Assembly (NCBI GenBank): GCA_000092065.1
Contig: CP000583.1
Direction: 5' to 3' (one strand)
DNA length: 64,000 nucleotides
Source: Ostreococcus lucimarinus
Lineage: Eukaryota
Positions 39,682-59,313 of this stretch are shown here, one piece after another. Position 1 is the stretch's first letter. Every line of letters begins with the position of its first letter. The position numbers and the translations under genes are program-made. A model generated the notes under the pieces. The model saw only the letters and a list, made by a program, of their open reading frames with translations, made no database searches and was not told the origin of the DNA.

Positions 39682-42600
39682 TCAACACTCCGCGCGCAAC
39701 GCCTCGAGGATGAAATCGTTCACCGTCGGGCACATGGCGTCGGAGAGGATCTCACACACGTCTAAAAGCTCTTGCGCATCTTCCGCGTCCATCGCTTCGT
39801 CGAGCCATTCGAGAGTGTCTTTCGCACCGGATATCATGGAAGGGATATCGTGGAGTCGCTCGTTCAGGGTGACGGCTTCCGGCGAGCCCGTCGTCGTGGA
39901 CGCCGGCGCTTTGCCGATGGTCACCGCGTTTCCGAGGTCCGGTCGACGTTTAGGTTTGAACCACTCAAACATTTTGTTCACCAAACCGAAATAAATCAAC
40001 ATCGGTTTTAGCTTGGCGTAGCGATCGAGTTCGTTAAGCTGTTCCCACGGAACGCTCGCAGAGACGTCGACGCTCGCCGGGTACGTCGCGATTCTCGCGC
40101 ATTCGTACTTCTTCGTGTGCCTCAAAATCGCTATCAGCGCGTTGCGTCGAGACGCTTCCCATTGATCGTGCGACCAGACCGCGAGCGAAAGCACGAGTGC
40201 TGCCGGTAGGAGCGGTGAAAAGCTAAACTCGCGATCGTTCCATATCTCATCTTCGCACGAAAGGCGGGCTAGCACGGCGTTGTACTCTTCCAATCCTTTC
40301 TGCGGGCACAATGAGACTTGATGGACGAGCAATCGCACGAGGTGCGGAAGGAGACTCATGTTGCTATCTTTTCCACCGCCACGACAGTCAGCGCTGAACG
40401 ACGCCCCCATGGCGAATCGACCGAGAAGTAGGCTGACGTCCCAAGCGACTTGTCGCGCGCGCGTCGGCGGCGAAATGAACGCGCCGACAGAGAAGCAATT
40501 TTGCCACCACGCATCTACCGCGGCGGCGTATGAAGCATCTGTGACCATATTCCCCATCACCGGTAGCAAGTTGTTGCATAGTGTCTCACTGTTGCGTAAC
40601 GCAGCGCCTTCCCACTCGCGCTTGGGAGTTCTCAACGCGACGTCCGCGCGCTTGGCGGATTGGTGACACGAAAAGTGAATCGCGTTGAAGTGCGATACAG
40701 TGCATACAGTCTGAGACATATCTCCGTTCGCAGATGGAGTTGATGCAAGTTTATTGAAGCAATAGATCCCGAGAAGCTCGTTCGGTTTCAACACGTATCC
40801 TTCAAAGCAAACTCTACAAACAATTGAGTCTTGTTCGCTTTCCATAGCCATCGAGTCGTACCCTCGCAGAGATCTGGGAGAGTGAGAGACGCCGATGGTA
40901 GACGCTCCCGGACTCGAGGAGTTTTTGACTACTGTCATGCCCATTTCAGTGAGCATTTGTTGGCGCTTTGCGAGTGCCTTGCGACGATTCGCTTCTTTCG
41001 TCTCTGCTCGCAAATTATCCAAATGTTTCTGTACCAACTCGGATCCGCTCGCAAACGTCTCCAGACAGTTCTCTGCCAAAGTTCCAATATCACGCTCGGT
41101 GACTGATTCAAGTTTATGTAGTAAGTCAAGCAGTGTCGGATGTTTGGTGACGTCGAGAGTGTAGCCCAGTGTGATTCCGTTCAAAAGCTCGAGCGCAAGC
41201 GGTAAGCCACTCCGCTTCATCGCCTTATTCCACGCGTCAGAACCACGATCTTGAGACATTTCTGCCCCGAAAGCTTCAGCTTCGATGTAATTCGTGATAA
41301 ACGACACAGTTCCTTGTGACCATATCGCTTCAAGCACGCGTTGACCTGAAAAATCTCGCGGGATCGCTTCAGCCAATCTCGTTGCACATTCGAGCTCGAG
41401 CTGTAGCGCACCGTGCTGAGAGTCTTCCTCGCTCATCTCGTCAAGACGTACAAGTTTACGAATGGAAGCGTCAAAGTTCTTCGCCATGATTGCTTTTGAT
41501 TCAACGGTTGATCCCGCGAGCCTTGGAATCACACGCGCGAGGATATCGGCCTCATGCCTCTCTCGTGCTCGAATGAGCTGCTTGAGTTGAGACAGGAAAA
41601 TTTCAACGTGATTCATCTCGTGCTCGCGCACCGCTATCGCAATCGTCTGCAGCGAAGAACTACTTTTTTGAAGGCGCGGTGAACCAGGACGATGCGCTGT
41701 TTCGCTGCTCTCTTCTAATTCGCGAGCGAGCATACTGCTCGTCGATGCTGACGCTTTCAATTCACTCATTGATCCGTGGGAAGTGTCTTCTTGTTCCTCG
41801 CGCAACAGCGTCTCAATGACGAGAAGGAGTCCCTTGCCTGAACGCGAGTTCTCAGTGAAAGCTCGCGCGGCTTCGTCAAGTAAACTTGCGAGCGCTCCAA
41901 TCGCGAGCATATGTTGTCTATTCTTCTTCACGTAGCATGCTGATCGAAGGATTTCAAGAAGTTTTGCCGAAGCGTCTTCACCGCCGGCGTACAATGCAGA
42001 TGAATTGTGCCGAATCTTTGGTAACAGTTGAATCAAAGTTTTAAAGCCAACATCTTCTTGGAAAACATTTGTGCCAGCAAACTTTGTTTCGATGTCTTCG
42101 TCTTCCTCTTGTACCGGCGCGAGTTCATCAACGCGCTCTTCCGTCGCTTCGCCATCCAAACCGCTCAGGCGGAAAGTCACCGCCATTGGTGGACCGATTG
42201 GATCGTTTGGAGAAACATTTTGACGTCGCTGAGTGCCATTGAATAATGAAGGTATCCAAATTCGTTCGAAAACATCTTCCACGGAGAGATCAAGGCTGAT
42301 TATTTGATTCGAAACCAATAACTCCATCCCAAAATCATCTTCGAGCAGGCCTAACATTTCCAACTCATGACAGATGAGATTCTTGACATCTCTCATCAAC
42401 GGCTGCGCGCTCATTTGTGCAGTCGAGTATGGATTTCGCGCCATCGTGCCGGGAATGAACTCTTCTTGACTCGCACTTTTCAGTAGTCGTAAAAGATACA
42501 CCTTCGATGGCGGAGCTCGAGGTAATACCAACATCGCAAGTTCATTCAATATGATGCACAGTGGCAGACGCGTCTTGTCAACTTGGGGTCGAACATGCGC

Positions 42601-45600
42601 TCGAGCAATTTTGACGCAAATCTTCGCCACTTCTTGCTGCATCGATTCTGATGACTCCAAACAGAATGATAGAAGTTCATCAAACGTCTCAGCGGCATTC
42701 ACAGCGCTAGGCATTTGACAAATTTGCAAAGTACGCGCACACAAGACAGAGCGGACGAGCGTCTCCAATCCAGTTTTGTTGAACTCTTTCATAAATTTTG
42801 TGGACTCCTTGAAAGTATCCCTTAAGAGCATCGAAATCGCATGTAATCCAGATCCGATGTCAACATTCGTTGATGCGAAAAGCGCCTTGTCGGATGCGGT
42901 GAACTTGCAACCAATATCCAATTCTTTTTGAAGTATCGATAGTAAAATGTCCACGAGTTTGCGAGTGTCATTCAACTTCATGATGATTGACTCGCTACGA
43001 AGCGTGAGACTCAGGGCGCTGAGATAATCCGCATACGATTCCTGTTCGATGCTTTTTATTGAATCGATGAGAAGGCTTCCAACCTCGACGTTCATCTCAT
43101 CGTCTTGCCGCAACACGAGACCAAAAATTTGTAGAACTTCTCGACGAACAAACTTTGAACCGCAGTGGAGTGCAGATACAAGTATAGGAATTAAACCAGA
43201 CATATTCGCAGATTCTTTCATATCTGCGATGCTGTAATTGTCCAACACTTTCGCTGCGGCGACAATTTCCTGCAGAATGCTAGAGTTCGTCATCGCTTGC
43301 TTCACTAGATCGAGAGCCGGGAGGAGAGTGTTCTCAACGAGAACTGCATTTGAACTCAATTGTTCAGAATTTAATGTCGTGCACGCCAAGGAAATGAGCG
43401 CTGATCGCTCACCGCCCGGAGTCAAAGCCGTTCCCGCTTCCAAGCGATATGTACTAGCGTGTACCAAATCTTTAAGAAGTAAGATGTCTTGATTGCTCTG
43501 TGAAATCATCGTCCCATGCCAGGCGTTCACCTGAAGTAATGAATCGCTTGCTCTCTCAAAGGCAGCCTCGCAAAGAAATTTGGCAACTTCATCGCTCCCG
43601 GCTGCCATGTTTGATAAAACAGTGCGAACTGTGTTGCAAACCGTCAAATTAGTGATGCGAGGGTTGAGCATGCGGTTAAACAGATGGCGGTGTATGTCAC
43701 CTTGGCTGAGCGCTTTGACGCCCAAAGGCGTACGTGAAAGACTTGTGCATAATTTCAATGCACAATTCAAATAATCGCAACAGACGCCATAGTTTCCAGA
43801 TACGTTTCGTAAATCCGTTTCATCTTCCGAACTTGCTTTTGATAAGAATCGCAAAATCGCGTCGTGAATTGCGCCGCACTTGTAATTTGCGGCGATGAAT
43901 TCCATTCTTCGACCTCTGCCCACAACTTTGAACATGTGCTCAACATCTCCAGATCCCTCACCTTGCTCGAAAAGCACTCGTCTTAACGAACTTTCTGTGC
44001 TTTCGATACAGTCAGTGACACGCTTTATAGATTCCGTCTGCAGTTTCAGCTCCTCGACTGCGTTGGCGAGATCATCGCTGCTGAGCAGTTTTGGATACCG
44101 TGTGCACAACGTCGGGTGTGCACTCAATGTTGTCTGAATCTTGGCGTACCGACAGTGCCCACACTCGCTGCATATGAAAGCATCAATCTTCTCATAGTTG
44201 ATGTTTCTACAGTAACGGCATTGATACGCGTTCTCCCGGCAATTGGTGCAGATGCCATGTTTTGTGTCTGTCACTTGCCGAGCGCATCGAGGACAGTGTA
44301 ACATGGTCATCATCTTTGCTTGAACACTCTCGTGGAAAGATTTGAAAACAAAGTTCAGAGCGGATGCATCGACCGGAATTTCAAATTCAAGCTCGGCGAT
44401 GTGCGCTGAAGCAGAAAACTTCAGTGTACCGAGCAATTGCCAACGAGAGGAATCAAAAGTGCGCATGGAGCTTATATCCTTGTTCGCATCCGTACGCCAA
44501 ACTTCAACTTCCTTGACATGAATATAGCGTTTAAGCTCCGTCACGTTCATAGAAATCGACTGGATCGTCATCGATTCACGTAATTTTGTCATCGCACTAT
44601 TTTTTGTGAAAGCTTGGCTCTTCTTCAGGCTATCGAGTGTATGATCTGTGAACTCATGGCATGCAATGTACGACGTCACGTCGCGCATACTTGGCTCTGA
44701 CTCCAACCAGTACTTGTCAGACGCGTCACTTTGTAAAAGCTGACGTTGCTGCAGCGCTCGATAAAGATCTGCACGTGGATGATCGCTGACTCTCAATAAC
44801 GTGTCTTTAACGCCTTGGCAGAATTTTTCAATGCTTGTCTCAAACATAGCGATGGCATCCGTGTCAGTCATCACGATGCTCTTCGTAAACTCCAGGAGCT
44901 CATTCGCTCGATGCCCGTAGTTCCTCATGCTTTCCATCAGTACCATCAACACTCGCATTACGTCATCTCGATACGTCTCGCAAGAGTACCACATGGCTTT
45001 TAAGATGCGCGTTGCGGCAGTACGTGTATCCGATTCAACGGCAAGGAGTCCACACTTGTTGACGACAACATCCAAGTGTTGGACTATTTCTCGCATGATT
45101 GAAGTTCTGCGATGATGATCGTTCTCATCGCAGTCTCGGTAGGACTCGATGATGTGCGATATTAAGTCACATACGCTTGTGGCGAAAGCCGCCGGAAGCT
45201 GCGGCACTGCTTCCATCAAAGCTGCAACCAACTCGACCGCAAAATCAACATGCTCGAGGAAATATCGCAAGCTTTTACGACACGCCTTCGCTACTTGCGT
45301 AACTTTAAAAATAGCATCTTTCACTTCCATCAGCTCATCATACGCTACTTCATCAACATACCAATGTGAAGTAAAATTTCCACTCACGAGCTTCCGGAGA
45401 ACTGGTGCTAAATTCAACAACTCTCCAGCTCGAACTAGAAGAGCCACCTCGCCCTCTTCGTCGCCAGCGAGTTGTTTGATCATAGAAATAGCATTTTCGG
45501 AAGGACATTCTGGTGTCAGCGCGGACACGCGGGCGAGAACTTGGAGCCACTCACTTTTCTCACGCGCAGGTAAAGTACTGAGATCGAGCTTGCGAGCATT

Positions 45601-48600
45601 CGCTGAGGCATGGAGAATTGTAGAATCGAGAGCATTGATGGCGACGTCTCGAACGTTCTTCATGGGAACTTGTTGTTGGAGCAAAGCTCCATATCCTTTT
45701 TCGGCCGGCATCTCTTCTTTATCGTACGAATCGATGCGTCTTAAAAGTTCGCACGTCAACGCATACGAGTGCAAAAAAGCCTCGCGTGCGTCTTTCGTTG
45801 TGATCTCCTGTAACTGTGAGCATTCAGCCGCAATTGCGAGGCGCCAAGTAATTGCGTCGTACTCAAGAATGTCTCCACGCAGGGGCGGCAGCTTGCATAA
45901 ATCTGGATTTAAGCATTCTGAGTATGCTTCAGACAGCGATCGAACAAGTGTAGCTTGCGAACGGTACAACACGTCGTCGTTGAGCTGCATGATAGCCGAT
46001 ACAAGGTCTCGGATGCCGTTCGCTTTCGCGCACTTGTCTCGTTTGAACGCCGGATTGGGAACGAAAATACACCTTGCTTGATCTAAATTCAAGCGCTCAT
46101 TTCCACTGATCGTGGTCAGATGCCAAAGCAATGTGTCTGATGCCGCGGCGCGAACGTCCTCGCGATCGGATTTGATGAGTTTTAAGACAGATTCGACAAG
46201 ATTGGCGTCACGTTCATGAGTGAGCACAGCGATGAGAGCGTGCACGATGTGAGGTACGATCTCGTCGGCATCCCATGCTCCAGCGCCAACATGGAGCATC
46301 GCAGTCGCACTATTTGCCAATGTGGCTAAATAAGGAGATGAGTCCAACAATGCGTTTGGACGTCGGATTGCGAGACGGCCAAGTTTTCGCATCGCGCAAT
46401 AGAACTCAAAAAGGTCGTCGTCTGAGACACTCATCGGCCGCTTCAAAATTCGAGGACAGATGCGTTCGGCAACCTTGTGACCGAATAATAACGTTGAGTT
46501 ATCTTTGATGTTAACTGCTGTCAGCGTATTATCGCGAGTGTGGACACTCAATACTTTCCAGGCGATAAACTTCGCTGAACGATGTGCTGGGGTTTCCAAT
46601 GTAACAAATTGCCTTTTCCTCAACATTGATTCGTAGCACACGCGCAGCTTGCTCGATTTCAAGTCAAGCTCGCAGTGTCGCAGCGCCTGGATGATTGAAG
46701 TCGTACCGCTCAGCCACGCTGAAGAATCTGTGATCTCACTATCCTTTTGACGAACCAAGTGGCGCCTAGCACGACTCACGTGAGATGCAAGCGCATCATC
46801 AATCGCCTGAGTTTCGCTATCACGCTCAACTTTCATGTCTGCTTCAAATACATCCTCGTTGCACGCATACACCTCCATTCGGTCGATACGTATGCATAGC
46901 TGATTCACAGACTCAGCAACAAATTTGAGCTTTAGCGGTTGCGTACTACTTTTGATGGTATTAGACTCTGAGCATGTGAACGGCACGTCGTACCATCTCT
47001 TTGATTCGCGTTCAAATTTGACCACTCTTCCCCCAGGAAGGATGAGCTTTGAAGGCGCATGAGACTGCACCGTCATACCGCCAACATGAATTCGAACGCC
47101 TCGAATAACACGTAGATCTCCGCCTCCTAACTCCAATGTTAAATGTGCATCGTCAGAATTTGCCGATTCTATGTAACCGTCGTCTGATTGTAGGACGCCA
47201 CGCAACGCCGCCGGAAGTGATCCTCGATTGAAAGATCCGCCGAAGTCAACATTCGACGTTACCTTGGCAAGTTTCTCAAAAAAGTCGTACGGAAATCTCG
47301 TCACACTCGTCGAAACTTCTTCAGTACGTGCTTCTAAGAATTGACTTTTCGGCGTAGGTGACGACTTCACGGCTTCGTAAGAGTTGATTTGCATCGAACC
47401 ATCGCTGCGCAAAATGATCAGTGCAGATGGAAATTCTCCAGATCCCGTTTTCTGATATCCCACATGACCAACGACGCTTGCAGAAGAAGGAGGTATGGAG
47501 ATTATGCTCGCTTCTAAACCATCAAACACCAGTAGTGCAGCAGAATCGCCCATGGAATCCGTACTGACAAAAACTTGCGCAGGAATTTGCAACGTTGCAT
47601 CTGGACCCGGTTTGTTTGGTAAACAGAAATCTGACACCCTAAATGAGTGATGACTATCATTCAGCTTAGCTTTATTGAGCATTGCGACGGTCACTTTATT
47701 TTCCTCGTTTCGTTCGACACACGAAATGATAACTTCACCGTCGTTCGTGCTGACGATGATAACGTCGTGCGTTTCTGAGTGCATGACAGCTTGCGCACCA
47801 TTCGTATTTTGAATGTCGATTTTACTCGACTCAGTCAATTGAACGATCTCGTTTGCCTGTTTCATTCGCACTTCTTGCACATGCACATCACTTTCACTCG
47901 TTGTCATTGCGTTGCATACATGACCACGGAGTGCAGAGGCGAACCACGCTGACGAAGTGATGCAAGCCGGCGAAGTAGAAATTGTACACACGGGTGTGTA
48001 TGCATCGCAACTCAGGTCATACACACTAGTTGAGTGCTGTCCAGTGATGGAGAACAAATACGTAGAGTTCGAAACCCAAGAAGCGTCTATGATGAGCTCA
48101 AAATCATGCTCACCCGCCGGGGTTCCAAGTCGCAACCTGTCGAGAATTTCTCCGCCTCGGCCAAGTGTGCATATTTGCACCTCGTGTAAACCGACAACGG
48201 CGAGGTAATCTTTGTTCATATGGTTGAATTGAACCTTCATCACCTCGAAACCAATCAAATTCCTAGACAATGGTCTGATACCAACCTTATCTCCGAGTCG
48301 AACTGCCTTATTCTCGCTATTCGTCGGTTGCGCGCCTACGACGATATTCGCGTCCAGAATTGAAAGCTTGTCGCCTTCCGCTATGGCGAGATGCCCATCT
48401 CTCGAGCAAGCTGCGGTATTTCTGACAATGACACCGGAAAGCAGTAACTCTTGTACTTGTGCTTTGCTAGGTACCGGTCCGACTTCGAAGGATCCAGCTT
48501 TGAAATTACGAGCGACGTGTAGCGTGGCGTCAGTGTCTTTGACTTTGATCTCCAAACCATCATCAGCCAAGCTTTGGTCTACTCGTGTAACATCGTCTTC

Positions 48601-51111
48601 ATGTAACGGCCTGAACCACGATACGAGTACACTTTCTAACTTGTCCTGCACTTTCGCTTTTTGCAAAGCCATCTTAAGCGCTTCGAGCGCTGAGACAGAG
48701 CAAAGACGTCGAGCGAGGTTCGGCTCGTAAGATTCTTCCATGGATTCTTCACCTTCAGAATCACTGCCTGGATCTATTTCGAAGCGATCGGCCGCCTTTT
48801 CTGACGTTGTTCGACGTGCATTTACGTCTTCCAAGTCGCGTCCGTTTAAACAATAACATCTGTGTTGGGGCGCTGGAGTCGCACCGTCCGCACCGCAGTC
48901 GCAGAAAAATCTTGACTTTCTAGAGTACGCCACTCGATGTCCCGAATGACAGGTTTTCGCGCAGTTGCTGCAGCATCCACGGCTTGCAACAAGATTACAG
49001 TCATAGCAGAAATACCAATGCTGTTCTTGAAACGACTCACCACTTGTCACGAACGTACAGAGCCCAGATGATACGTCCGTCATATCGTTCGGCTCTGCCC
49101 CGTCGTTCGTATCGTCGTGTGGTAACAGTATTCGGTCGCGCAAGCGGTCGCGATTTCCTTCATCTTGCGCGACAAGGCGCCCCCAAAGCTGTGGGAGCGT
49201 GTTACGTGCGGATTCTTCACCTGAAGGTCGGTCGACGGCGAGCGTCGCAACGGCAGCGTCAAGGACCGCATCCAAGCGCGCAAGTCGGCTTTCGAGCAGT
49301 TCATCCGATGGATTGTCATCCAGTAGATTTTCTGGCATCGCAAATAAATTTCCCAACTCGTCTTGAAGGTTCAAGGCAACGGTCCTAGCGTTCTCACTCG
49401 CAGCTTCTAAATCGTCCTCTGCCTGGTCCCGAAGTGCGAGTTGAGCGTCATTTGTCTCCGTCGGCGTGATATGAGCGGCAGCGAGCTGTTCGACGAGCGG
49501 CATCGACACCAGTTCGTGATTCGCGTTTTTCCTTTCACGCAGCACAAAGCTTACCATCCGTATGGCAGGAATAAATCTTAAAATCTTTGCATCTTCTCCG
49601 GCGAATAGTTTCGCTCGTTCCAAAGTCGCAAGAAGGCACTCCGCAATTGAAGTCGGTCCGTCGCGCTGGCAGCCTAAACCAAGTCGAATCAGCGTCAATG
49701 GGGCAGAGTCTAAAATCAATTTATTCGCTTTCGCCACCGTGAAGCGTTCATCCAATAGGAACGAATCGGGGAACTCTCCTAGAACCGTGGCGAGCAGTCC
49801 GGTCACGCACCCGTGAGATTCATCATTTACGTCGTCGTTGCTCATCATTGCTTCCAGAAATTTCACCACGGAATCTCGAACGTCTAAATCACTGCCGCAG
49901 AGTCTAATCAACACACTCTTTGCCACTGCTTTGCGAGGGAATAAAGCGAAAGATGAATCGATCTTGCGTGCATTTTCCGTGCTCGAAACAGCCACTGTGT
50001 ACAGTGCGCTCGCGAGGGCGCACGACGTTTCGCCCGACAATTCGGTCCAATCTGACGAATTGACGAAGACTGCGACGACGCCTGCGATAAACTTATACTC
50101 ATTATCCGTTAAATGCGGCCCGAGAAGCGTGCACGCCCTTTCGCATTCCAAAACGATGCGATCCGTCACGCGGATCTCTGTGTTCGTGTTAAGCGCCTCC
50201 AAGCACAACTGCGCCATCAGCCGTGGCACCTCTCCCAATCGCATCGCCGTTTTCCCGAGCTTTTGACGCAAAAGAACTGAGCATCGCTCAAGCGTTGAAC
50301 GGTACAGCTCGACGATTAAACCATCCATGGGCGAACTCACCCGCGACGTCTCGCCGCTCACGGAGAATTCCTCAACCGACTCGGAGAGCGCGTGCATGAG
50401 CGCAACCTCTTCGCTCGCCGCGAACTCGCTCACATCGCTCAACGCCCCACTTTCGCAGCGCAACCGTTCCATTATCTTCGCAGACCACCTCTCGGCGTAC
50501 GTTCGCGACGTGCACGCGCGAAGAACGTCTCCCCACCTCGCCGCGAAGTCGCCGTCTCTCCCCGCGTCGGCGCGCTCGAGCGCGAACGCCGCCATCTTCA
50601 TCGCCGTAAAGTACGCATCATAAACCGCCTGTTCATCATCTCTCAACGCCGCACTCAACGCGCTTCCGCACGCCGTGAACGTCCCCACGCACGCTTCACA
50701 AGCCTCCAACGCCGCCGCGCGTCCTCGCGTCGTCGCTCGCCCTCCCAAGACCTCGTCCAATCCGTCCCCGCGTTCGACCAGCGCCTTCAGGCAGTGCGGC
50801 GCAAGCGCGTGCGACGCCATCTTCGACGACCCACGCGACGTCTGTTTCGCCGCCCGTCGCAGCGCTCGCACGAGCTCTTCCAGCCCATCGTTCGCGTCGT
50901 CTTCCTCTTCGTTCGTCCCGATGCGCGTCGCCGTCGTCGTCCTCGTCATCATCGTCGCTTCCGCGTCCCCACCGTCGTCGTCGTCCATCGCGCGCGCGCG
51001 CGCGTCCTCGCGAGACCTCGCGTTCGCGCTCTCGCGCGTCTCGTCGTCCGTCGCCGCGCGCGCGACGCCGCGGTCGCCCGCGCGTCGCGTCGCGTCCGAA
51101 TCGGCATTCAT
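39682..51111 (-). CDS. UBR4/BIG-like giant E3 ubiquitin ligase (UBR-box plus ZZ-type zinc finger), 3809-aa single exon
   Basis: The UBR box CTFVTSGESFQEQHWYFCYDCNLVASRGCCSNCAKTCHSGHRVAYSRKSRFFCDCGADG fits the UBR consensus. The ZZ-like segment is CPRCARQVTDTKHGICTNCRENAYQCRYCRNINYEKIDAFICSECGHC. Size and armadillo-like helical composition match BIG/UBR4 (p600). ATG at 51109-51111 checked. Confidence 0.75.
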   Translation of the reverse strand: MNADSDATRRAGDRGVARAATDDETRESANARSREDARARAMDDDDGGDAEATMMTRTTTATRIGTNEEEDDANDGLEELVRALRRAAKQTSRGSSKMASHALAPHCLKALVERGDGLDEVLGGRATTRGRAAALEACEACVGTFTACGSALSAALRDDEQAVYDAYFTAMKMAAFALERADAGRDGDFAARWGDVLRACTSRTYAERWSAKIMERLRCESGALSDVSEFAASEEVALMHALSESVEEFSVSGETSRVSSPMDGLIVELYRSTLERCSVLLRQKLGKTAMRLGEVPRLMAQLCLEALNTNTEIRVTDRIVLECERACTLLGPHLTDNEYKFIAGVVAVFVNSSDWTELSGETSCALASALYTVAVSSTENARKIDSSFALFPRKAVAKSVLIRLCGSDLDVRDSVVKFLEAMMSNDDVNDESHGCVTGLLATVLGEFPDSFLLDERFTVAKANKLILDSAPLTLIRLGLGCQRDGPTSIAECLLATLERAKLFAGEDAKILRFIPAIRMVSFVLRERKNANHELVSMPLVEQLAAAHITPTETNDAQLALRDQAEDDLEAASENARTVALNLQDELGNLFAMPENLLDDNPSDELLESRLARLDAVLDAAVATLAVDRPSGEESARNTLPQLWGRLVAQDEGNRDRLRDRILLPHDDTNDGAEPNDMTDVSSGLCTFVTSGESFQEQHWYFCYDCNLVASRGCCSNCAKTCHSGHRVAYSRKSRFFCDCGADGATPAPQHRCYCLNGRDLEDVNARRTTSEKAADRFEIDPGSDSEGEESMEESYEPNLARRLCSVSALEALKMALQKAKVQDKLESVLVSWFRPLHEDDVTRVDQSLADDGLEIKVKDTDATLHVARNFKAGSFEVGPVPSKAQVQELLLSGVIVRNTAACSRDGHLAIAEGDKLSILDANIVVGAQPTNSENKAVRLGDKVGIRPLSRNLIGFEVMKVQFNHMNKDYLAVVGLHEVQICTLGRGGEILDRLRLGTPAGEHDFELIIDASWVSNSTYLFSITGQHSTSVYDLSCDAYTPVCTISTSPACITSSAWFASALRGHVCNAMTTSESDVHVQEVRMKQANEIVQLTESSKIDIQNTNGAQAVMHSETHDVIIVSTNDGEVIISCVERNEENKVTVAMLNKAKLNDSHHSFRVSDFCLPNKPGPDATLQIPAQVFVSTDSMGDSAALLVFDGLEASIISIPPSSASVVGHVGYQKTGSGEFPSALIILRSDGSMQINSYEAVKSSPTPKSQFLEARTEEVSTSVTRFPYDFFEKLAKVTSNVDFGGSFNRGSLPAALRGVLQSDDGYIESANSDDAHLTLELGGGDLRVIRGVRIHVGGMTVQSHAPSKLILPGGRVVKFERESKRWYDVPFTCSESNTIKSSTQPLKLKFVAESVNQLCIRIDRMEVYACNEDVFEADMKVERDSETQAIDDALASHVSRARRHLVRQKDSEITDSSAWLSGTTSIIQALRHCELDLKSSKLRVCYESMLRKRQFVTLETPAHRSAKFIAWKVLSVHTRDNTLTAVNIKDNSTLLFGHKVAERICPRILKRPMSVSDDDLFEFYCAMRKLGRLAIRRPNALLDSSPYLATLANSATAMLHVGAGAWDADEIVPHIVHALIAVLTHERDANLVESVLKLIKSDREDVRAAASDTLLWHLTTISGNERLNLDQARCIFVPNPAFKRDKCAKANGIRDLVSAIMQLNDDVLYRSQATLVRSLSEAYSECLNPDLCKLPPLRGDILEYDAITWRLAIAAECSQLQEITTKDAREAFLHSYALTCELLRRIDSYDKEEMPAEKGYGALLQQQVPMKNVRDVAINALDSTILHASANARKLDLSTLPAREKSEWLQVLARVSALTPECPSENAISMIKQLAGDEEGEVALLVRAGELLNLAPVLRKLVSGNFTSHWYVDEVAYDELMEVKDAIFKVTQVAKACRKSLRYFLEHVDFAVELVAALMEAVPQLPAAFATSVCDLISHIIESYRDCDENDHHRRTSIMREIVQHLDVVVNKCGLLAVESDTRTAATRILKAMWYSCETYRDDVMRVLMVLMESMRNYGHRANELLEFTKSIVMTDTDAIAMFETSIEKFCQGVKDTLLRVSDHPRADLYRALQQRQLLQSDASDKYWLESEPSMRDVTSYIACHEFTDHTLDSLKKSQAFTKNSAMTKLRESMTIQSISMNVTELKRYIHVKEVEVWRTDANKDISSMRTFDSSRWQLLGTLKFSASAHIAELEFEIPVDASALNFVFKSFHESVQAKMMTMLHCPRCARQVTDTKHGICTNCRENAYQCRYCRNINYEKIDAFICSECGHCRYAKIQTTLSAHPTLCTRYPKLLSSDDLANAVEELKLQTESIKRVTDCIESTESSLRRVLFEQGEGSGDVEHMFKVVGRGRRMEFIAANYKCGAIHDAILRFLSKASSEDETDLRNVSGNYGVCCDYLNCALKLCTSLSRTPLGVKALSQGDIHRHLFNRMLNPRITNLTVCNTVRTVLSNMAAGSDEVAKFLCEAAFERASDSLLQVNAWHGTMISQSNQDILLLKDLVHASTYRLEAGTALTPGGERSALISLACTTLNSEQLSSNAVLVENTLLPALDLVKQAMTNSSILQEIVAAAKVLDNYSIADMKESANMSGLIPILVSALHCGSKFVRREVLQIFGLVLRQDDEMNVEVGSLLIDSIKSIEQESYADYLSALSLTLRSESIIMKLNDTRKLVDILLSILQKELDIGCKFTASDKALFASTNVDIGSGLHAISMLLRDTFKESTKFMKEFNKTGLETLVRSVLCARTLQICQMPSAVNAAETFDELLSFCLESSESMQQEVAKICVKIARAHVRPQVDKTRLPLCIILNELAMLVLPRAPPSKVYLLRLLKSASQEEFIPGTMARNPYSTAQMSAQPLMRDVKNLICHELEMLGLLEDDFGMELLVSNQIISLDLSVEDVFERIWIPSLFNGTQRRQNVSPNDPIGPPMAVTFRLSGLDGEATEERVDELAPVQEEDEDIETKFAGTNVFQEDVGFKTLIQLLPKIRHNSSALYAGGEDASAKLLEILRSACYVKKNRQHMLAIGALASLLDEAARAFTENSRSGKGLLLVIETLLREEQEDTSHGSMSELKASASTSSMLARELEESSETAHRPGSPRLQKSSSSLQTIAIAVREHEMNHVEIFLSQLKQLIRARERHEADILARVIPRLAGSTVESKAIMAKNFDASIRKLVRLDEMSEEDSQHGALQLELECATRLAEAIPRDFSGQRVLEAIWSQGTVSFITNYIEAEAFGAEMSQDRGSDAWNKAMKRSGLPLALELLNGITLGYTLDVTKHPTLLDLLHKLESVTERDIGTLAENCLETFASGSELVQKHLDNLRAETKEANRRKALAKRQQMLTEMGMTVVKNSSSPGASTIGVSHSPRSLRGYDSMAMESEQDSIVCRVCFEGYVLKPNELLGIYCFNKLASTPSANGDMSQTVCTVSHFNAIHFSCHQSAKRADVALRTPKREWEGAALRNSETLCNNLLPVMGNMVTDASYAAAVDAWWQNCFSVGAFISPPTRARQVAWDVSLLLGRFAMGASFSADCRGGGKDSNMSLLPHLVRLLVHQVSLCPQKGLEEYNAVLARLSCEDEIWNDREFSFSPLLPAALVLSLAVWSHDQWEASRRNALIAILRHTKKYECARIATYPASVDVSASVPWEQLNELDRYAKLKPMLIYFGLVNKMFEWFKPKRRPDLGNAVTIGKAPASTTTGSPEAVTLNERLHDIPSMISGAKDTLEWLDEAMDAEDAQELLDVCEILSDAMCPTVNDFILEALRAEC

Positions 51112-54566: not shown

Positions 54567-56253
54567 ATGGGCGTGTGTGGATCATCGCCCGCGGTGCCGG
54601 TGCGTCGCGCGACGCGAACGCGAACGACGCGAACGACGCGTGTGGAATAATCGTGGCGTCGAATTGCCACGTTGAATTCCCGCGCGCGATCGAGCGCGCG
54701 ACCGCGATGGGAACGCGCGATGAGGCGATGAGAACGGTGATAGGGGCGTGAAGAGCGAGACGTGAATCGAGACTGACCGCGCGCGTGATCGTTGACGCGT
54801 TTCGCGCGAGTAGTATGAGGAAACGAATAAGCGGACGGGGAAGCAGAATCCCGTGGGGAAAACCGCGCGACCGTCGAGCGTGCTCGGACGGGAAACGCCG
54901 GATGTGAATGATTTATTTGAGTTCCACGAAGAACTTGGACGCGGTCAGTTCGGGACGACGTTCTTGGTGACAGAAAAGGCGACCGGTCGTAAGTGCGCGT
55001 GCAAGGCTATCTCTAAGCGTCAATTGTCGAACGCCGAGGACATTGAAGAGGTGAGAAATGAAGTGAGAATTCTTCATCACCTCGCCGGTCACGAGCACGT
55101 CGTCGAACTCGTCGGTGCGTATGAAGGAAGCAAGCACGTGTACATCGTCATGGAACTCTTGTCCGGCGGCGAATTGTTCGATCGCATTGTTGAAAAGGGC
55201 AAGTACAGTGAAAAGGACGCGTCCGAGACGGTGCGCACCATCGTTGAAACTGTTCAATACTGCCACGAGTTGAGCGTCATGCACCGTGATTTGAAGCCTG
55301 AAAATTTTGTCTTGAAGAATAAGGATAAGAATTCTCCGGTCTGCGCTATCGATTTCGGTTTATCTACGTTCTTCCGCGAGAACCAAGTCTTCATGGATCT
55401 TGTCGGGAGCCCGTACTACGTTGCGCCGGAAGTATTGCGTCGTCGATACTCAAACGAATCCGACGTCTGGTCATGCGGTATCATCCTTTACATTCTCTTG
55501 TCTGGTGTCCCGCCGTTCTGGGCTCAAACCGAGCAAGGAATTTTCGACGCCATCTTGCAAGGCGCACTGGATCTCGAGAGCGACCCATGGCCGAAGATCA
55601 GTGCGGAGGCGAAAGAACTCATCTCTGGCATGCTCCAAGCGGACCCGAAGAAGCGCCTGACGGCGGCTCAAGTGTTGAAACACCCGTGGGTGGCTGATCC
55701 GAACGTTGCGCCGAAGACAAAGCTAGACAACGTCGTGTTCAAGCGGTTCAAGAACTTTGCTGGTATTTCCAAGTTCAAGAGGATGGGTTTGATGGCGATG
55801 GCTCGCACCATGACTGCGGACGAAGTCGCTGGCTTGAGAGAACTCTTCAAGAGCTTCGATACCGACAACTCTGGTACGATTTCCATCGACGAACTTCGCC
55901 AAGGCTTGAAACTCAAGTCTGCGGGTCCCGCAATGGAGGAACTCCGCACACTCATGAAGACTATTGACGTCGATGGCAGCGGCGAACTTGACTACGAAGA
56001 GTTCATTGCCGCTACGCTCGCGCAATCGAGACAAGCGTCCGACGCCGCTGTGAGACGCGCTTTTGATTACTTTGATACCGATGGGGATGGTTCCATCACG
56101 GTGCAAGAATTTGAACAAGCCTTCAAAAAGATGTCTGATGTTGAGCGTGCCAACTTGGGAGACATTGGCGAGTTGATTGCCAGCGCCGACACTGACGGTG
56201 ATGGTTGCATCGATTTCAACGAGTTTATGGCTATGATGAAAGCGGACAAGTAG
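54567..56253 (+). CDS. CDPK: calcium-dependent protein kinase (CDPK: Ser/Thr kinase, autoinhibitory junction, four EF-hands); probable exons 54567..54599 and about 54847..56253
   Basis: Kinase domain LGRGQFGTTFLV...HRDLKPENF...DFGLS...SPYYVAPE. Four EF-hand loops (DTDNSGTISIDE, DVDGSGELDYEE, DTDGDGSITVQE, DTDGDGCIDFNE). Track ORF 54853.. starts on GTG, with an in-frame stop at 54811 and no ATG between them. An upstream micro-exon ATG 54567 (MGVCGSSPAVP) ends at donor GTGCGT (54600). It carries a classic N-myristoylation/palmitoylation motif. The acceptor is one of several in-frame AGs between 54813 and 54846, the best being gcag|AAT at 54843-54846. Confidence 0.85.
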
Positions 56254-56459
56254 GCTGCGCGCGCTTCGCTGGGCCGTATTTAATACTGCCGGTACTTTAT
56301 TTTCAATCTCTCGTTTTTCATATAATTAACAAGAAGGTAACGTAAATGAGAAACGAAGCGCTCCGCGCTCGTCGCTCGCAACCAACGCGCAAACATTTGC
56401 CATCGCGTACTATCGTAGACGAACGGCGACGAAACCATCGTAACAGAAGGCGCGACTGA

Positions 56460-57057
56460 TTAAACGCCCACCTTGACGAGCTCCATCTCGAAAATGAGCA
56501 CGGAGTCCGGCTTGATGAGCGGCGTAGGGGATGATTTACCGTACGCCAGCTCGGACGGAATTACGAGTTCCCACTTATCGCCCTCCTTCATGAGCTGCAT
56601 CGCCTCGGTCCAGCCACTGATGACTTGATTCGGCGCGAACGTCGTCGGTTGACCGCGCTTGTACGACGAATCAAACTCCTCGCCCTGGATATTCTTCCCA
56701 GAGTAGTGACACGAGCACGGCGTCGACTTCGAGGGCGAGGGCCCACCCTCCGGTCCAGATTTCAAAACGCGATACTGCAACCCCGACGGCAGCTCGACCA
56801 CGCCCGGTTTCAACTTATTGGCCTGCGTCGCGCGACGAACCATCGTCGTCAGTCCACATCGCGTCGTCGGACGCGTCCGGTTCGTCGAGTCATCGAACCA
56901 TCCCATCATCGCGCGCGCGCATTCGTTCGCCGCGCACCGCGAGAAACGCCGCGCCGTCGCTCTTCGCGTCCGCCATGCCGCCGACGAACGCGCAACCGAT
57001 CAACGCGATCACCGCCAGGACGAGCGCGAGCGTCGTCGATCGTCGCCCGCGAGCCAT
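56460..57057 (-). CDS. FKBP-type peptidyl-prolyl isomerase, Mip/FkpA-like, with signal peptide; two exons: 56938..57057 and 56460..56822
   Basis: Exon 1 is ATG 57057 (MARGRRSTTLALVLAVIALIGCAFVGGMADAKSDGAAFLA), a signal peptide ending at donor GTGCGC. Exon 2, after acceptor CAG, is ANKLKPGVVELPSGLQYRVLKSG...FKBP domain (FDSSYKRGQPTTF...VISGWTEAMQLMKEGDKWELVIPSELAYG...LIFEMELVKV). The junction ...AAFLA|ANKLKPGVVELPSGLQY reproduces the Mip/FkpA linker FLxxNKxKPGVxxLPSGLQYKV. Track ORF 56460..56909 begins on an internal ATG-ATG. Exon 2 coordinates are derived from the ORF frame and may be off by one. Confidence 0.8.
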
Positions 57058-57084
57058 CGCGGAGTGCGGATTCGCCGATCGCGC

Positions 57085-57150
57085 GCGCGTCGACCGATCG
57101 ATCGACCGATCGATCGATCGATCGACCGATCGATCGACCGACCGCGTCGA
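57085..57150. repeat. GATC-containing tandem repeat (CGATCGATCGAC-type units) in the 5' region of the FKBP gene
   Basis: gtcgaccgatcgatcgaccgatcgatcgatcgatcgaccgatcgatcgaccgacc, seen directly. Confidence 0.7.
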
Positions 57151-57657
57151 GCGTCGGCCGAATCCGATCGCGACGCGACGATTCGATTCGTCACACTGGT
57201 CGAGACGCGCGTCGAGACGCGCGCGCGCGCTCGACGCGCGCGCGGCACACGACGACGACGACGCGCGCGGCGCGCGACGAGTGATTTTTAGAGAAAGCTC
57301 GCGCGCGCGACGCGACGCGACGCGACGAGGGCGCGGCGGGGATGACGGCGAAGAAACGCGCGGAGGAACGCGCGAGGCGAGGGGAGACGAAGCGCTGCGG
57401 CAACGCGCCGTGCGGGAGCGAGGTGGGACGATCGATCGGCGCGATCGCGGACGACGGGACTGACGATGATTGGTAATCGTGCGCGCAGGAGACGCCGATG
57501 TGGCGTAAGGGGTGGATCGATGATGATGGGGTTGAGGTGGACTTGTGTAACGCGTGCGGTGCGCGGCGCGCGCGCGACGAGACGAAGACGACGCGAAAGC
57601 GCGCGGACGACGATGCGCGTGACACGCGACTGACGCGCGCGCGCTTGAATCGTAGGT

Positions 57658-59313
57658 TTGATTTTCAAGCGAGGGTGGTGGTGCGCGTGGTGTGCGTTGC
57701 CGTATCGCAAAGTGGGTGAAAACGATGAGGCGTTGCGTTCGCGGTGGGTTCCTTGCGAGTATTGTCATCGGTTTACACATTACGACTGCGAGAAACGCGA
57801 AGCGCCGGAGGCTTTGGAGGCTGAGCGATACGCGTGTCCGACGTGCAGAAATTTGAAAAAACTTCCGAAGCCTGCGAAAGAGATTGACCCCCCGAAGAGC
57901 TCGGAGGCGCAAATGATCGATGGACTTTTGGTGGTGATTCGTCCGTACGATCGAGCGCCGAAGAAATTCGACGAGGTCGGGGAAGTAAAGATCGTCAAGA
58001 AGACCGCGCATCGCCCGAGCGTGTCCACGAAACGTCCACGAAGTGCAGATGGGAAATCAAGCCGCACCGCACGAGTGCTCAAGTCGTCGTCTTCGGAGAA
58101 AGAGAAGAAGAAGCTTCCGTTATCGTCGAATGCGCCGCGGCGCGCAGTGTCAAAATCGATTCGCGGAGGCAAGCCGACGGGGCTCGCATCACTGGCCAAG
58201 GTGGCGACTCGAGTGTTACCAGAGCGTATGGTTCGATCTGAAGCTTACAAACGCGCGCAAGCAGCAGAGGAAGCGAAAGAGGAGGAGCTCGCATTGAGTA
58301 CTCGTCGAAGCGGACGCGCGCCAAAGGAGTTGGCGAAGGCCGCCGGGCAAGATTTCTTGCACGAACCTCGACATCAATCTCGTCCAAGTCAACCAGTTTT
58401 TCGAAGCGGTGTCCGTCAGCAGTCAACTGTCAATGAATCGTTGTACGCCGAACCTTTTTACGGTCAACACGGTGGTCTTGGTTTCGCCGCATCCATGGAA
58501 GCGCGATTGGTACACAACGAATTGTCACCGCAAGGCGTCCTGTATCCCGAAGAAACGGGTGGTATGGTTGGTCCGCTACGTACGTTGGGTATGGGTACTA
58601 AGACTCCGGATCAAACCTTCGTTCGACGACCCCCGCTCGCTCCAAAGCAGCAACGCGGGTCTCCAAAAGTTCCAGACCAATTGACGTCTTCGACGGTGAA
58701 GAAGTCAATTCGTCGGGAAAGCGGAGGGCGCGCGGAAGAACACGAGCTCATGACGGTTGCATCACAATTGATCGAGGCACAGTGTGAAGCATACGATCAA
58801 TACACGGTCACAATCAATGTTTGTAGACTGCTGAACAAGCTCGACGTGATGCGCGGATACACGACGCGCGATATGATCGTCAAGTTCAATTTGCATCGCA
58901 TCGTTGGAGATCTCTTGATGAATGATGACATTCGCATCCGTCTTGCGGCTGACAAGTTGCTGAAAATTCCATCATGGCGCGAGGCTATCTGCGGAAACGC
59001 GACGCCTCAGCGTTCGATGCAATTGCCCGTGATGCCGACGCACCAGCCTTTCGCATCGTTACAAGCCGCTCCTTCGATGGAGGCGGCTGCACCGCCGACG
59101 CATATCGTGAGCAAGCCCGTACCACGACGTCCTCGAGCGCCACGCGAAGCGAAAGCAATGGCCTTAATGGCGTCGCAGTCTTCACCCACCGAGACGATCA
59201 CTCCACCTCAGACTCAGTATCCGTACTTTGAGACGGCGAGCCAGGATGTCGCTGACATCGACAACGCGCTCTTGCTCTCTGGTGGTCAAGATGCGAGTCA
59301 ACGAATGATTTAG
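57658..59313 (+). CDS. PHD-finger (C4HC3) protein; 5' end unresolved (track ORF starts on TTG; possible upstream GATA-like zinc-finger exon(s) at about 57342-57650)
   Basis: PHD: WWCAWCALPYRKVGENDEALRSRWVPCEYCHRFTHYDCEKREAPEALEAERYACPTCRN (C-x2-C-x17-C-x2-C-x4-H-x2-C-x16-C-x2-C). The rest is low-complexity, Ser/Pro/Lys-rich. No ATG near the 5' end. Upstream in another frame, ATG 57342 ...KRCGNAPCGSE (donor GTGGGA), then ETPMWRKGWIDDDGVEVDLCNACG, resembles a GATA-type finger (TPLWRxG...LCNACG). Confidence 0.55.
   Translation: MIFKRGWWCAWCALPYRKVGENDEALRSRWVPCEYCHRFTHYDCEKREAPEALEAERYACPTCRNLKKLPKPAKEIDPPKSSEAQMIDGLLVVIRPYDRAPKKFDEVGEVKIVKKTAHRPSVSTKRPRSADGKSSRTARVLKSSSSEKEKKKLPLSSNAPRRAVSKSIRGGKPTGLASLAKVATRVLPERMVRSEAYKRAQAAEEAKEEELALSTRRSGRAPKELAKAAGQDFLHEPRHQSRPSQPVFRSGVRQQSTVNESLYAEPFYGQHGGLGFAASMEARLVHNELSPQGVLYPEETGGMVGPLRTLGMGTKTPDQTFVRRPPLAPKQQRGSPKVPDQLTSSTVKKSIRRESGGRAEEHELMTVASQLIEAQCEAYDQYTVTINVCRLLNKLDVMRGYTTRDMIVKFNLHRIVGDLLMNDDIRIRLAADKLLKIPSWREAICGNATPQRSMQLPVMPTHQPFASLQAAPSMEAAAPPTHIVSKPVPRRPRAPREAKAMALMASQSSPTETITPPQTQYPYFETASQDVADIDNALLLSGGQDASQRMI

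Follow-up and report, generated by a model that had tools for sequence, protein, structure and literature searches.

We analysed a 64,000-nucleotide stretch of Ostreococcus lucimarinus DNA (contig CP000583.1; hereafter the window), in which a two-exon FKBP gene lies on the minus strand at positions 56460 to 57057. In our reading, this nuclear gene probably encodes a small, monomeric prolyl isomerase of the Mip type that serves the secretory pathway. An earlier note, made from the sequence alone, had described it as a Mip/FkpA-like FKBP with its signal peptide on a separate first exon, and the coordinates that it gave match ours exactly. The features of the gene and its product are as follows.

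56460..57057, minus strand: coding sequence of the FKBP gene, two exons
56938..57057, minus strand: exon 1, 40 codons, MARGRRSTTLALVLAVIALIGCAFVGGMADAKSDGAAFLA (MARGRR...AAFLA), from the sequence and its translation
56823..56937, minus strand: intron, 115 nucleotides (nt), phase 0, GT-AG, exactly missing in five contigs
56460..56822, minus strand: exon 2, 120 codons plus TAA (stop at 56460..56462), from the sequence and its translation
56965..57057, minus strand: predicted signal peptide, residues 1-31, from inspection and hydropathy
56766..56973, minus strand: remnant of the Mip stalk helix or FKBP_N tail, residues 29-59, split by the intron (Pfam PF01346)
56475..56738, minus strand: FKBP_C peptidyl-prolyl isomerase domain, residues 69-156 (Pfam PF00254)
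56703..56717, minus strand: C-S-C-H-Y, residues 76-80, the C-x-C-H-Y clade signature (alignment A1)

The reading frame opens with an ATG (57057..57055) in good context, with G at both -3 and +4, and direct reading of the minus strand revealed no further ATG in the 260 nt upstream of 57057; translation would begin at this codon. Exon 1, with a GC content at third codon positions (GC3) of 0.875, runs from the start codon through the signal peptide to the ninth residue of the predicted mature protein, and exon 2 holds the remaining stalk-helix remnant together with the entire FKBP domain. The intron begins GTGCGC and terminates in GACGCAG, with a branch-like CTGAC 32 nt from its 3′ end; unspliced read-through meets a stop 15 codons into it. 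Splicing yields a product of 160 residues, in which the FLAANKLKPGVVELPSGLQYRVLKSG motif spans the exon junction, and this product is identical throughout to XP_001416984.1 / ABO95277.1 / UniRef100_A4RUM4 of O. lucimarinus CCE9901. Contigs from five sequencing runs, namely L001 (ERR9850567), L002 (SRR3892724), L010 (SRR25907284), L011 (SRR28369097) and L012 (ERR9850592), matched both exon flanks at 100% identity with precisely the 115 nt gone. Three of these contigs (L010, L011 and L012) span the whole open reading frame including the ATG at 57057, and L011 extends 1.2 kb farther upstream of it. Intron-less contigs with perfect flanks are hard to account for except as mRNA. The gene is confirmed as a real feature, far above chance, and the two-exon model of the earlier note stands: the cDNA-like contigs were checked for a different exon 1 and all carry the same one, and the spliced product equals XP_001416984.1.

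An unspliced alternative, an open reading frame of 149 residues (56460..56909, beginning MMGWFDD), was rejected as a real gene. Its 29 N-terminal residues are intron sequence, the exact protein is absent from a collection of 15 billion proteins, and all five transcript-type contigs are spliced. Metagenome gene calls that start within the intron, P0122 and P0129 for example, look like the outcome of splicing-blind gene calling on genomic DNA. With precisely this exon structure, the gene has been public in GenBank/RefSeq since the annotation of the O. lucimarinus genome; it is an ordinary housekeeping-type gene, and its domain family is textbook knowledge.

The spliced product is a member of the FKBP superfamily. 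Pfam PF00254 (FKBP_C) matched it with 85.8 bits against a curated cut-off of 21.1 (E=2.7e-24), covering profile positions 3-94 of 94, and the model discussed below shows an FKBP fold, in which a five-stranded sheet surrounds a helix, with a conserved pocket. A stalk-helix segment and the linker motif stand directly before this domain, where PF01346 (FKBP_N) matched with E=6.6e-8 over just its profile positions 67-97 of 97 (31/97). The predicted stalk-helix remnant comprises 12 residues (31-42, as modelled by AlphaFold2) and aligns with Legionella Mip (LpMIP) from chain position ~83, and ~16 residues lie between the predicted cleavage site and the first strand. The NCBIfam model for FklB (PRK11570) matched only from position 81 of 206 (115.6 bits against a cut-off of 198) and that for FkpA (PRK10902) only from position 122 of 271 (100.4 bits against 215), both scores falling below the family cut-offs, since the algal protein offers nothing to align with the first 80-120 model positions. 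Neither the N-terminal dimerisation domain nor a full-length stalk helix is present; the absence of the long N-terminal dimerisation helices had been claimed in the earlier note, and the C-terminal matches of the FklB and FkpA models agree with it. Without the dimerisation domain, the protein does not qualify for full membership in the bacterial Mip/FkpA/FklB family. A sequence search against solved structures returned 122.6 bits for LpMIP, 112.6 for the MIP of Trypanosoma cruzi (TcMIP), 87.7 for FkpA, 66.7 for endoplasmic reticulum (ER) FKBP2 and ~55 for FKBP12. The further claim of a Mip/FkpA-type linker followed by an FKBP domain is borne out by the FKBP_N tail with a full FKBP_C domain and by the score of Legionella Mip over FKBP12 (122 versus 55 bits).

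AlphaFold2, run on an alignment of 33 sequences (A1), gave a model with a mean predicted local distance difference test score (pLDDT) of 86.7, and with 88-98 per 10-residue block over residues 41-160. The signal peptide was modelled with low confidence (helix 9-23), followed by the helix at 31-42 and then the FKBP fold. Foldseek superposed this model on Mip and FKBP structures with root-mean-square deviations (rmsd) of 1.2-1.6 Å, among them 1.2 Å for TcMIP and 1.5 Å for the truncated LpMIP 77-213 (template-modelling score, TM, 0.90 on target). Ten of the 14 FKBP12 pocket positions are identical in the algal protein: Y80, F90, D91, R96 and V107 correspond to FKBP12 Y26, F36, D37, R42 and V55, and I108, W111, Y134, I143 and F151 to FKBP12 I56, W59, Y82, I91 and F99. 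The other four (T100, Q106, P139 and L142) are the same as or similar to those of Mip-type proteins. Adjoining the binding pocket, the 80s loop reads YGKSSPTPLIKPDS (residues 134-147, 56502-56543, minus strand) in Ostreococcus lineages, as against YGDRQRGxxITPGA elsewhere in the family, with the same length and a different chemistry. At the C-x-C-H-Y signature, no variation occurs at C78, H79 and Y80 among the 33 eukaryotic sequences of A1, with conservation of at least 90% for C76; V occupies the first position in all 81 sampled bacteria, and the second is C in only 14 of them.

The homology search returned thousands of matches, and the best eukaryotic relatives are proteins of ~150 residues from several algal groups. 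They include Ostreococcus tauri (85% identity), other Ostreococcus-like lineages, Bathycoccus and further Mamiellales relatives, the prasinophytes Cymbomonas and Pyramimonas, the brown algae Discosporangium, Choristocarpus and Ascophyllum, the cryptophyte Rhodomonas and many transcriptome entries. In a neighbour-joining tree (129 mature-protein columns, 100 bootstraps), 25 eukaryotic sequences formed one clade in 89 of 100 bootstraps, within bacterial Mip/FklB diversity. The bacterial sample for this tree had been chosen by query-derived peptide patterns, so the sister group is not meaningful and just eukaryotic monophyly was used. Mean identity to the O. lucimarinus protein was 77% for Mamiellales, 66% for other eukaryotes, 54% for bacteria and 35% for FKBP12. 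A position among cytosolic FKBP12-like proteins, which would run counter to the earlier note, was also checked, and the tree does not put the protein with FKBP12. Its layout is that of the eukaryotic clade as a whole, with a signal peptide, a short helix containing ..G..FL..N..K.GV, a C-x-C-H-Y FKBP domain and a length of ~145-165 residues. On these sequence comparisons, the protein belongs to a coherent eukaryotic clade with the C-x-C-H-Y signature; our literature searches on Ostreococcus FKBP, Mip-like FKBPs in algae and FKBP_N found no paper describing this clade.

The bacterial scan covered one genome per bacterial species. The closest bacterial relatives share 48-59% identity and are spread over Ignavibacteriales, Bacteroidota, Gammaproteobacteria, Verrucomicrobiota, Planctomycetota, Chlamydiota and others; most have 225-250 residues, with a signal peptide or lipobox and the full N-terminal domain. 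A subgroup of short Bacteroidota proteins of the Mip-type FKBP kind (135-144 residues; L028, L034, L040, L043, L047 and L048) has no signal peptide, and L051, L053, L055, L057 and L082 fall into the same subgroup. These short forms carry FLAANKLKPG(V/I)TELPSGLQY and VTCHYHG, and loss of the dimerisation domain therefore happened in bacteria too. Separately, the highest-scoring matches of the search (P0001, P0003, P0004, P0006 and P0008) are ~275-residue proteins made of two tandem Mip-type FKBP units, with C-x-C-H-Y in each unit; a signal peptide is not obvious in any of them. For P0008, a precomputed match to zf-MYND (PF01753) exists, and the N-terminal stretch of P0004 is rich in Cys and His.

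Among characterised proteins, Legionella pneumophila Mip (PDB 1FD9 and 8BJC; truncated 77-213 form, 2UZ5 and 8BJE) is the best match in both sequence and structure, with 122.6 bits, 51% identity and an rmsd of 1.5 Å to the truncated form, and it shares the linker motif and the pocket residues. It differs in having an N-terminal dimerisation domain and a full stalk helix of 65 Å, and in reading V-T-V-E-Y where the alga has C-x-C-H-Y. TcMIP (TcFKBP22, PDB 1JVW) follows with 112.6 bits, 45% identity and an rmsd of 1.2 Å over 128 columns. Its chains have ~160-167 residues and the match ends at 141, leaving a C-terminal extension that the alga does not have; in addition, TcMIP serves a parasite as a virulence factor, and the algal protein comes from a free-living organism. 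TcMIP has a 29-residue signal peptide and is secreted (PMC11357558), and both LpMIP 77-213 and TcMIP are described as consisting of half a stalk helix plus the FKBP domain, with TcMIP constitutively monomeric (bioRxiv 10.1101/2023.04.24.538046). E. coli FkpA and FklB have the same domain order in their C-terminal part, but their dimeric chaperone architecture is not expected in the alga.

The ER proteins FKBP2/FKBP13 of animals and fungi (PDB 2PBC and 4NNR) are also composed of a signal peptide and a single FKBP domain and belong to the secretory pathway, and the xxEL tails of algal orthologues add to this likeness. However, the match to them (66.7 bits) covers the FKBP core only (query residues 72-158), they have no stalk-helix segment, and, unlike ER-resident FKBPs, the O. 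lucimarinus protein has no retrieval tail. Thylakoid-lumen FKBPs of plants (AtFKBP13, PDB 1U79; PnsL4/FKBP16-2, 7WFF) share the FKBP fold and likewise occur in a photosynthetic organism, yet none was found among the 60 best PDB matches, and the algal protein does not have their bipartite presequence. AtFKBP13, in a sequence validated as identical to PDB 1U79 chain A, is 39% identical with 16% gaps. The alignment does not reach its N-terminal C5 and C17, and a gap or non-Cys residues stand opposite its C106/C111 loop; these four cysteines form its two disulfides. The closest similarity of the algal protein is thus not to lumenal FKBPs of the AtFKBP13 type with their cysteine pairs.

We then considered the presequence. 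The signal peptide claimed by the earlier note for the N-terminus is recognisable by its layout, with a basic n-region (RGRR, +3), a hydrophobic stretch of ~16-23 residues and, directly before K32, a c-region reading A-D-A; the Kyte-Doolittle maximum in a 12-residue window is 3.13 at residue 10, and the uncharged run is 23 residues long. This n/h/c layout is kept in 20 homologues with almost no sequence conservation, and the mature TTPEG/KEDG..FL..N follows directly. Cleavage is predicted after A31 because of the -3/-1 rule and of the aligned AGA/KEDG in O. tauri and AGA/REDG in P0005, the slash marking the putative cut. In the 31-residue presequence, the hydrophobic core sets in at residue 10, too early for a plastid transit peptide to precede it, and inspection showed no bipartite presequence composed of a transit peptide and a lumenal signal. 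At the other end, 22 of the 120 best matches terminate in xxEL of the ER-retrieval type (KDEL, KEEL, HKEL, KAEL, AKEL, SREL, QDEL, AGEL, SSEL and others). The O. lucimarinus protein has no KDEL/HDEL-type signal and ends in ...ELVKVGV; it is one of 50 Mamiellales-type matches that stop directly after the last strand with VG[AV] (..KVGV or ..KVGA). The missing room for a transit peptide, the KDEL-like tails of relatives, the secretion of TcMIP and the dissimilarity of AtFKBP13 make the ER/secretory route, rather than the thylakoid lumen, the most likely destination, and in Mamiellales there is probably no ER retention.

In the reading that we favour, the signal peptide of ~31 residues would take the nascent chain into the ER and be cut off, probably after Ala31. 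The mature protein would have ~129 residues, with half a stalk helix packed on a complete FKBP domain, and it would catalyse cis/trans prolyl isomerisation in proteins that fold in or pass through the endomembrane system. Because the bacterial dimerisation module is absent, a plain isomerase like TcMIP or LpMIP 77-213 is to be expected, and not a V-shaped dimeric chaperone like FkpA. Because it does not have the KDEL-like tail of many algal orthologues, the protein is probably not retained in the ER and would travel onward to post-ER compartments or out of the wall-less cell. Several points weigh against this picture. Peptidyl-prolyl isomerase activity and the binding of FK506 or rapamycin are in some doubt because the 80s loop of Ostreococcus, YGKSSPTPLIKPDS, differs from the consensus of the family. 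The location is read from sequence features by inspection; a hydrophobic stretch of 16-23 residues is long for a signal peptide and might be an uncleaved signal anchor; and there is no retention motif, so the destination compartment is not fixed by sequence. Finally, two contigs (L001 and L002) begin 1 nt before the Met28 codon, and a shorter transcript without the signal peptide is possible.

The strongest competing account of the N-terminus, although an unlikely one, is that the hydrophobic segment escapes cleavage and serves as a signal anchor, so that the product would be a type II membrane protein whose FKBP domain is lumenal or exterior. The uncharged run (23 residues here, 14-24 in relatives) and the peak hydropathy (3.13 here, up to 3.71 in Bathycoccus) come near to transmembrane dimensions, and residues 9-23 are helical in the AlphaFold2 model. 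Against this, small residues at -3/-1 (A-D-A, A-G-A, A-C-A, V-S-A) are conserved before the mature segment in nearly all relatives, the h-regions of several relatives have just 14-16 residues, and the KDEL-type tails of relatives suit soluble lumenal proteins. We consider it very improbable that the protein is instead a plastid FKBP of the thylakoid lumen, with the N-terminus as a lumen-targeting signal and its RR as a twin-arginine motif. The host is photosynthetic, and R-R at residues 5-6 before a hydrophobic stretch with an A-x-A end resembles the lumenal half of a bipartite presequence. However, the transit-peptide part is missing, and the twin-arginine reading of RGRR was rejected, as relatives have RK, KK or no basic pair at this site. 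Orthologues with KDEL-like tails also speak against a plastid location, as do the probable presence of heterotrophs in the clade (for example, the eukprot INCI entry, which we take from its prefix to be a heterotroph) and the origin of TcMIP, the closest characterised eukaryotic relative, from a plastid-less parasite. In the structure search, AtFKBP13 lies under the 53.6-bit floor of the listed PDB matches, compared to 122.6 bits for Mip. The earlier note had hinted at the plastid lumen, and this hint is not upheld: the 31-residue presequence is a bare signal peptide without a transit-peptide part, orthologues end in KDEL, KEEL, HKEL or KAEL, and the cysteine loops of AtFKBP13, itself just 39% identical with 16% gaps, are not present here.

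A further alternative concerns the transcript. Four of the five transcript-type contigs have a 5′ end no more than 1-2 nt away from an ATG, which is that of Met1 for L010 and L012 (57058/57056) and that of Met28 for L001 and L002 (56977/56976); Nextera adapter sequence is present at the 5′ end of L001 and L012. Such ends could reflect very short 5′ untranslated regions, two start sites, or an artefact of assembly or tagmentation. A second, shorter transcript from near 56977, translated from Met28 into a 133-residue cytosolic FKBP with dual localisation as the outcome, would suit the two contigs from different runs that start at the same place, as well as the good context of the Met28 ATG (G at -3 and G at +4). 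We nevertheless regard it as improbable: Met28 is not kept in O. tauri, P0005 or any other relative, contig ends are determined by assembly and Tn5 insertion sites (L001 has the adapter at this very position), and the three other contigs extend to the ATG at 57057 or beyond. That Ostreococcus recently acquired the gene from a bacterium by horizontal transfer is refuted by the present data, and we give this almost no credence. An FKBP_N tail with an FKBP_C domain is typical of bacteria, and FLAANKLKPGV.ELPSGLQY recurs verbatim in short Bacteroidota proteins, but this string was itself one of the search patterns. The best bacterial identities reach just 48-59% and are scattered over many phyla, whereas eukaryotes are closer (60-72% outside Mamiellales and 69-85% within) and form one clade (89/100). 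Synteny with the neighbouring calcium-dependent protein kinase gene is kept in Ostreococcus, Bathycoccus and a further Mamiellales relative, the gene is interrupted by a spliceosomal intron, and its GC3 is like that of the host.

More broadly, the Mip-type FKBPs of algae appear to be proteins of the secretory pathway or the ER rather than of plastids, and Mamiellales are without the retrieval tail found in other lineages; beyond good housekeeping, the significance of these observations is small. A wider scenario, which we put forward as speculative and rather unlikely in its entirety, is that eukaryotic Mip-type FKBPs make up an old family of ER foldases, not characterised to date, which is present in algae and other protists and has C-x-C-H-Y and a KDEL-like tail as its hallmarks, that Mamiellales lost the tail, and that the naked Ostreococcus exports its Mip-type isomerase to the cell surface or into seawater. 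There it may act on surface or foreign proteins in the manner of TcMIP and LpMIP, and a Met28 start might add a cytosolic isoform.

The position of the intron bears on another suggestion of the earlier note, that the exon split separates targeting from catalytic function. This did not hold up, as the intron lies nine codons past the predicted cleavage site, inside the stalk-helix remnant, and its position is common only to O. tauri among the relatives compared. In O. tauri, a 125-nt intron interrupts the homologous codon (AYLE/ANKL, the slash marking the intron) and reads GTGCGA...TTGACGACGATG...GACGCAG. Bathycoccus has a single 264-nt intron after GTTIE, before GEEFDSS, within the FKBP domain, and the Mamiellales relative P0040 is intron-less (456 nt). 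Because the Bathycoccus intron is elsewhere and P0040 has none, the intron is a genus-level feature with no evidence for exon shuffling; exon shuffling and an ancient domain-boundary intron are ruled out by these positions.

Two public gene models of relatives appear faulty. The O. tauri NCBI model P0007 (149 residues) starts at an internal Met, and an in-frame ATG 36 nt upstream of this start adds MTTRGGRRSTRR (L003 2965-3000, GCA_002158475.1 KZ155826.1), paralleling MARGRRSTT of O. lucimarinus; on this comparison, the model is probably truncated at its N-terminus. The older Bathycoccus prasinos model P0061 (180 residues) has a 15-residue insert, VRIYDFFAGTARVNR, at the intron site (L004 ~2274-2537). 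This insert is missing from P0035 (165 residues) and from all relatives, and part of the intron was apparently annotated as coding.

Within the window, the FKBP gene is convergent with a gene for a calcium-dependent protein kinase (Pkinase plus four EF-hands; 54853..56253, plus strand). The order of these two genes is conserved in O. lucimarinus, O. tauri, Bathycoccus and P0040 relatives (window 54853-59313; L003, L004 and L007-L009), and a GATA gene lies upstream of the FKBP gene in Bathycoccus as in O. lucimarinus. Two further features of the window are the following.

57342-57650, plus strand: GATA zinc-finger-like gene, divergent neighbour of the FKBP gene (Pfam GATA, 27.5 bits against a cut-off of 26.8, spliced product)
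39682-51111, minus strand: UBR4/BIG-type E3 ligase, one uninterrupted open reading frame of 3809 residues (E3_UbLigase_R4, 826 bits, plus UBR box)

The GATA-like gene has a putative 66-nt intron at 57423..57488 (GTGGGA...CTGAC...GCAG), which is unspliced in L011, a contig collinear with the genome at this gene. Between the FKBP and GATA genes, positions 57085-57140 hold a (CGAT)n-like run, gatcgatcgaccgatcgatcgatcgatcgaccgatcgatcgacc. The open reading frame of the UBR4/BIG-type ligase falls on the window's low-GC stretch, where the GC content is 0.46-0.53 compared to ~0.6 elsewhere.

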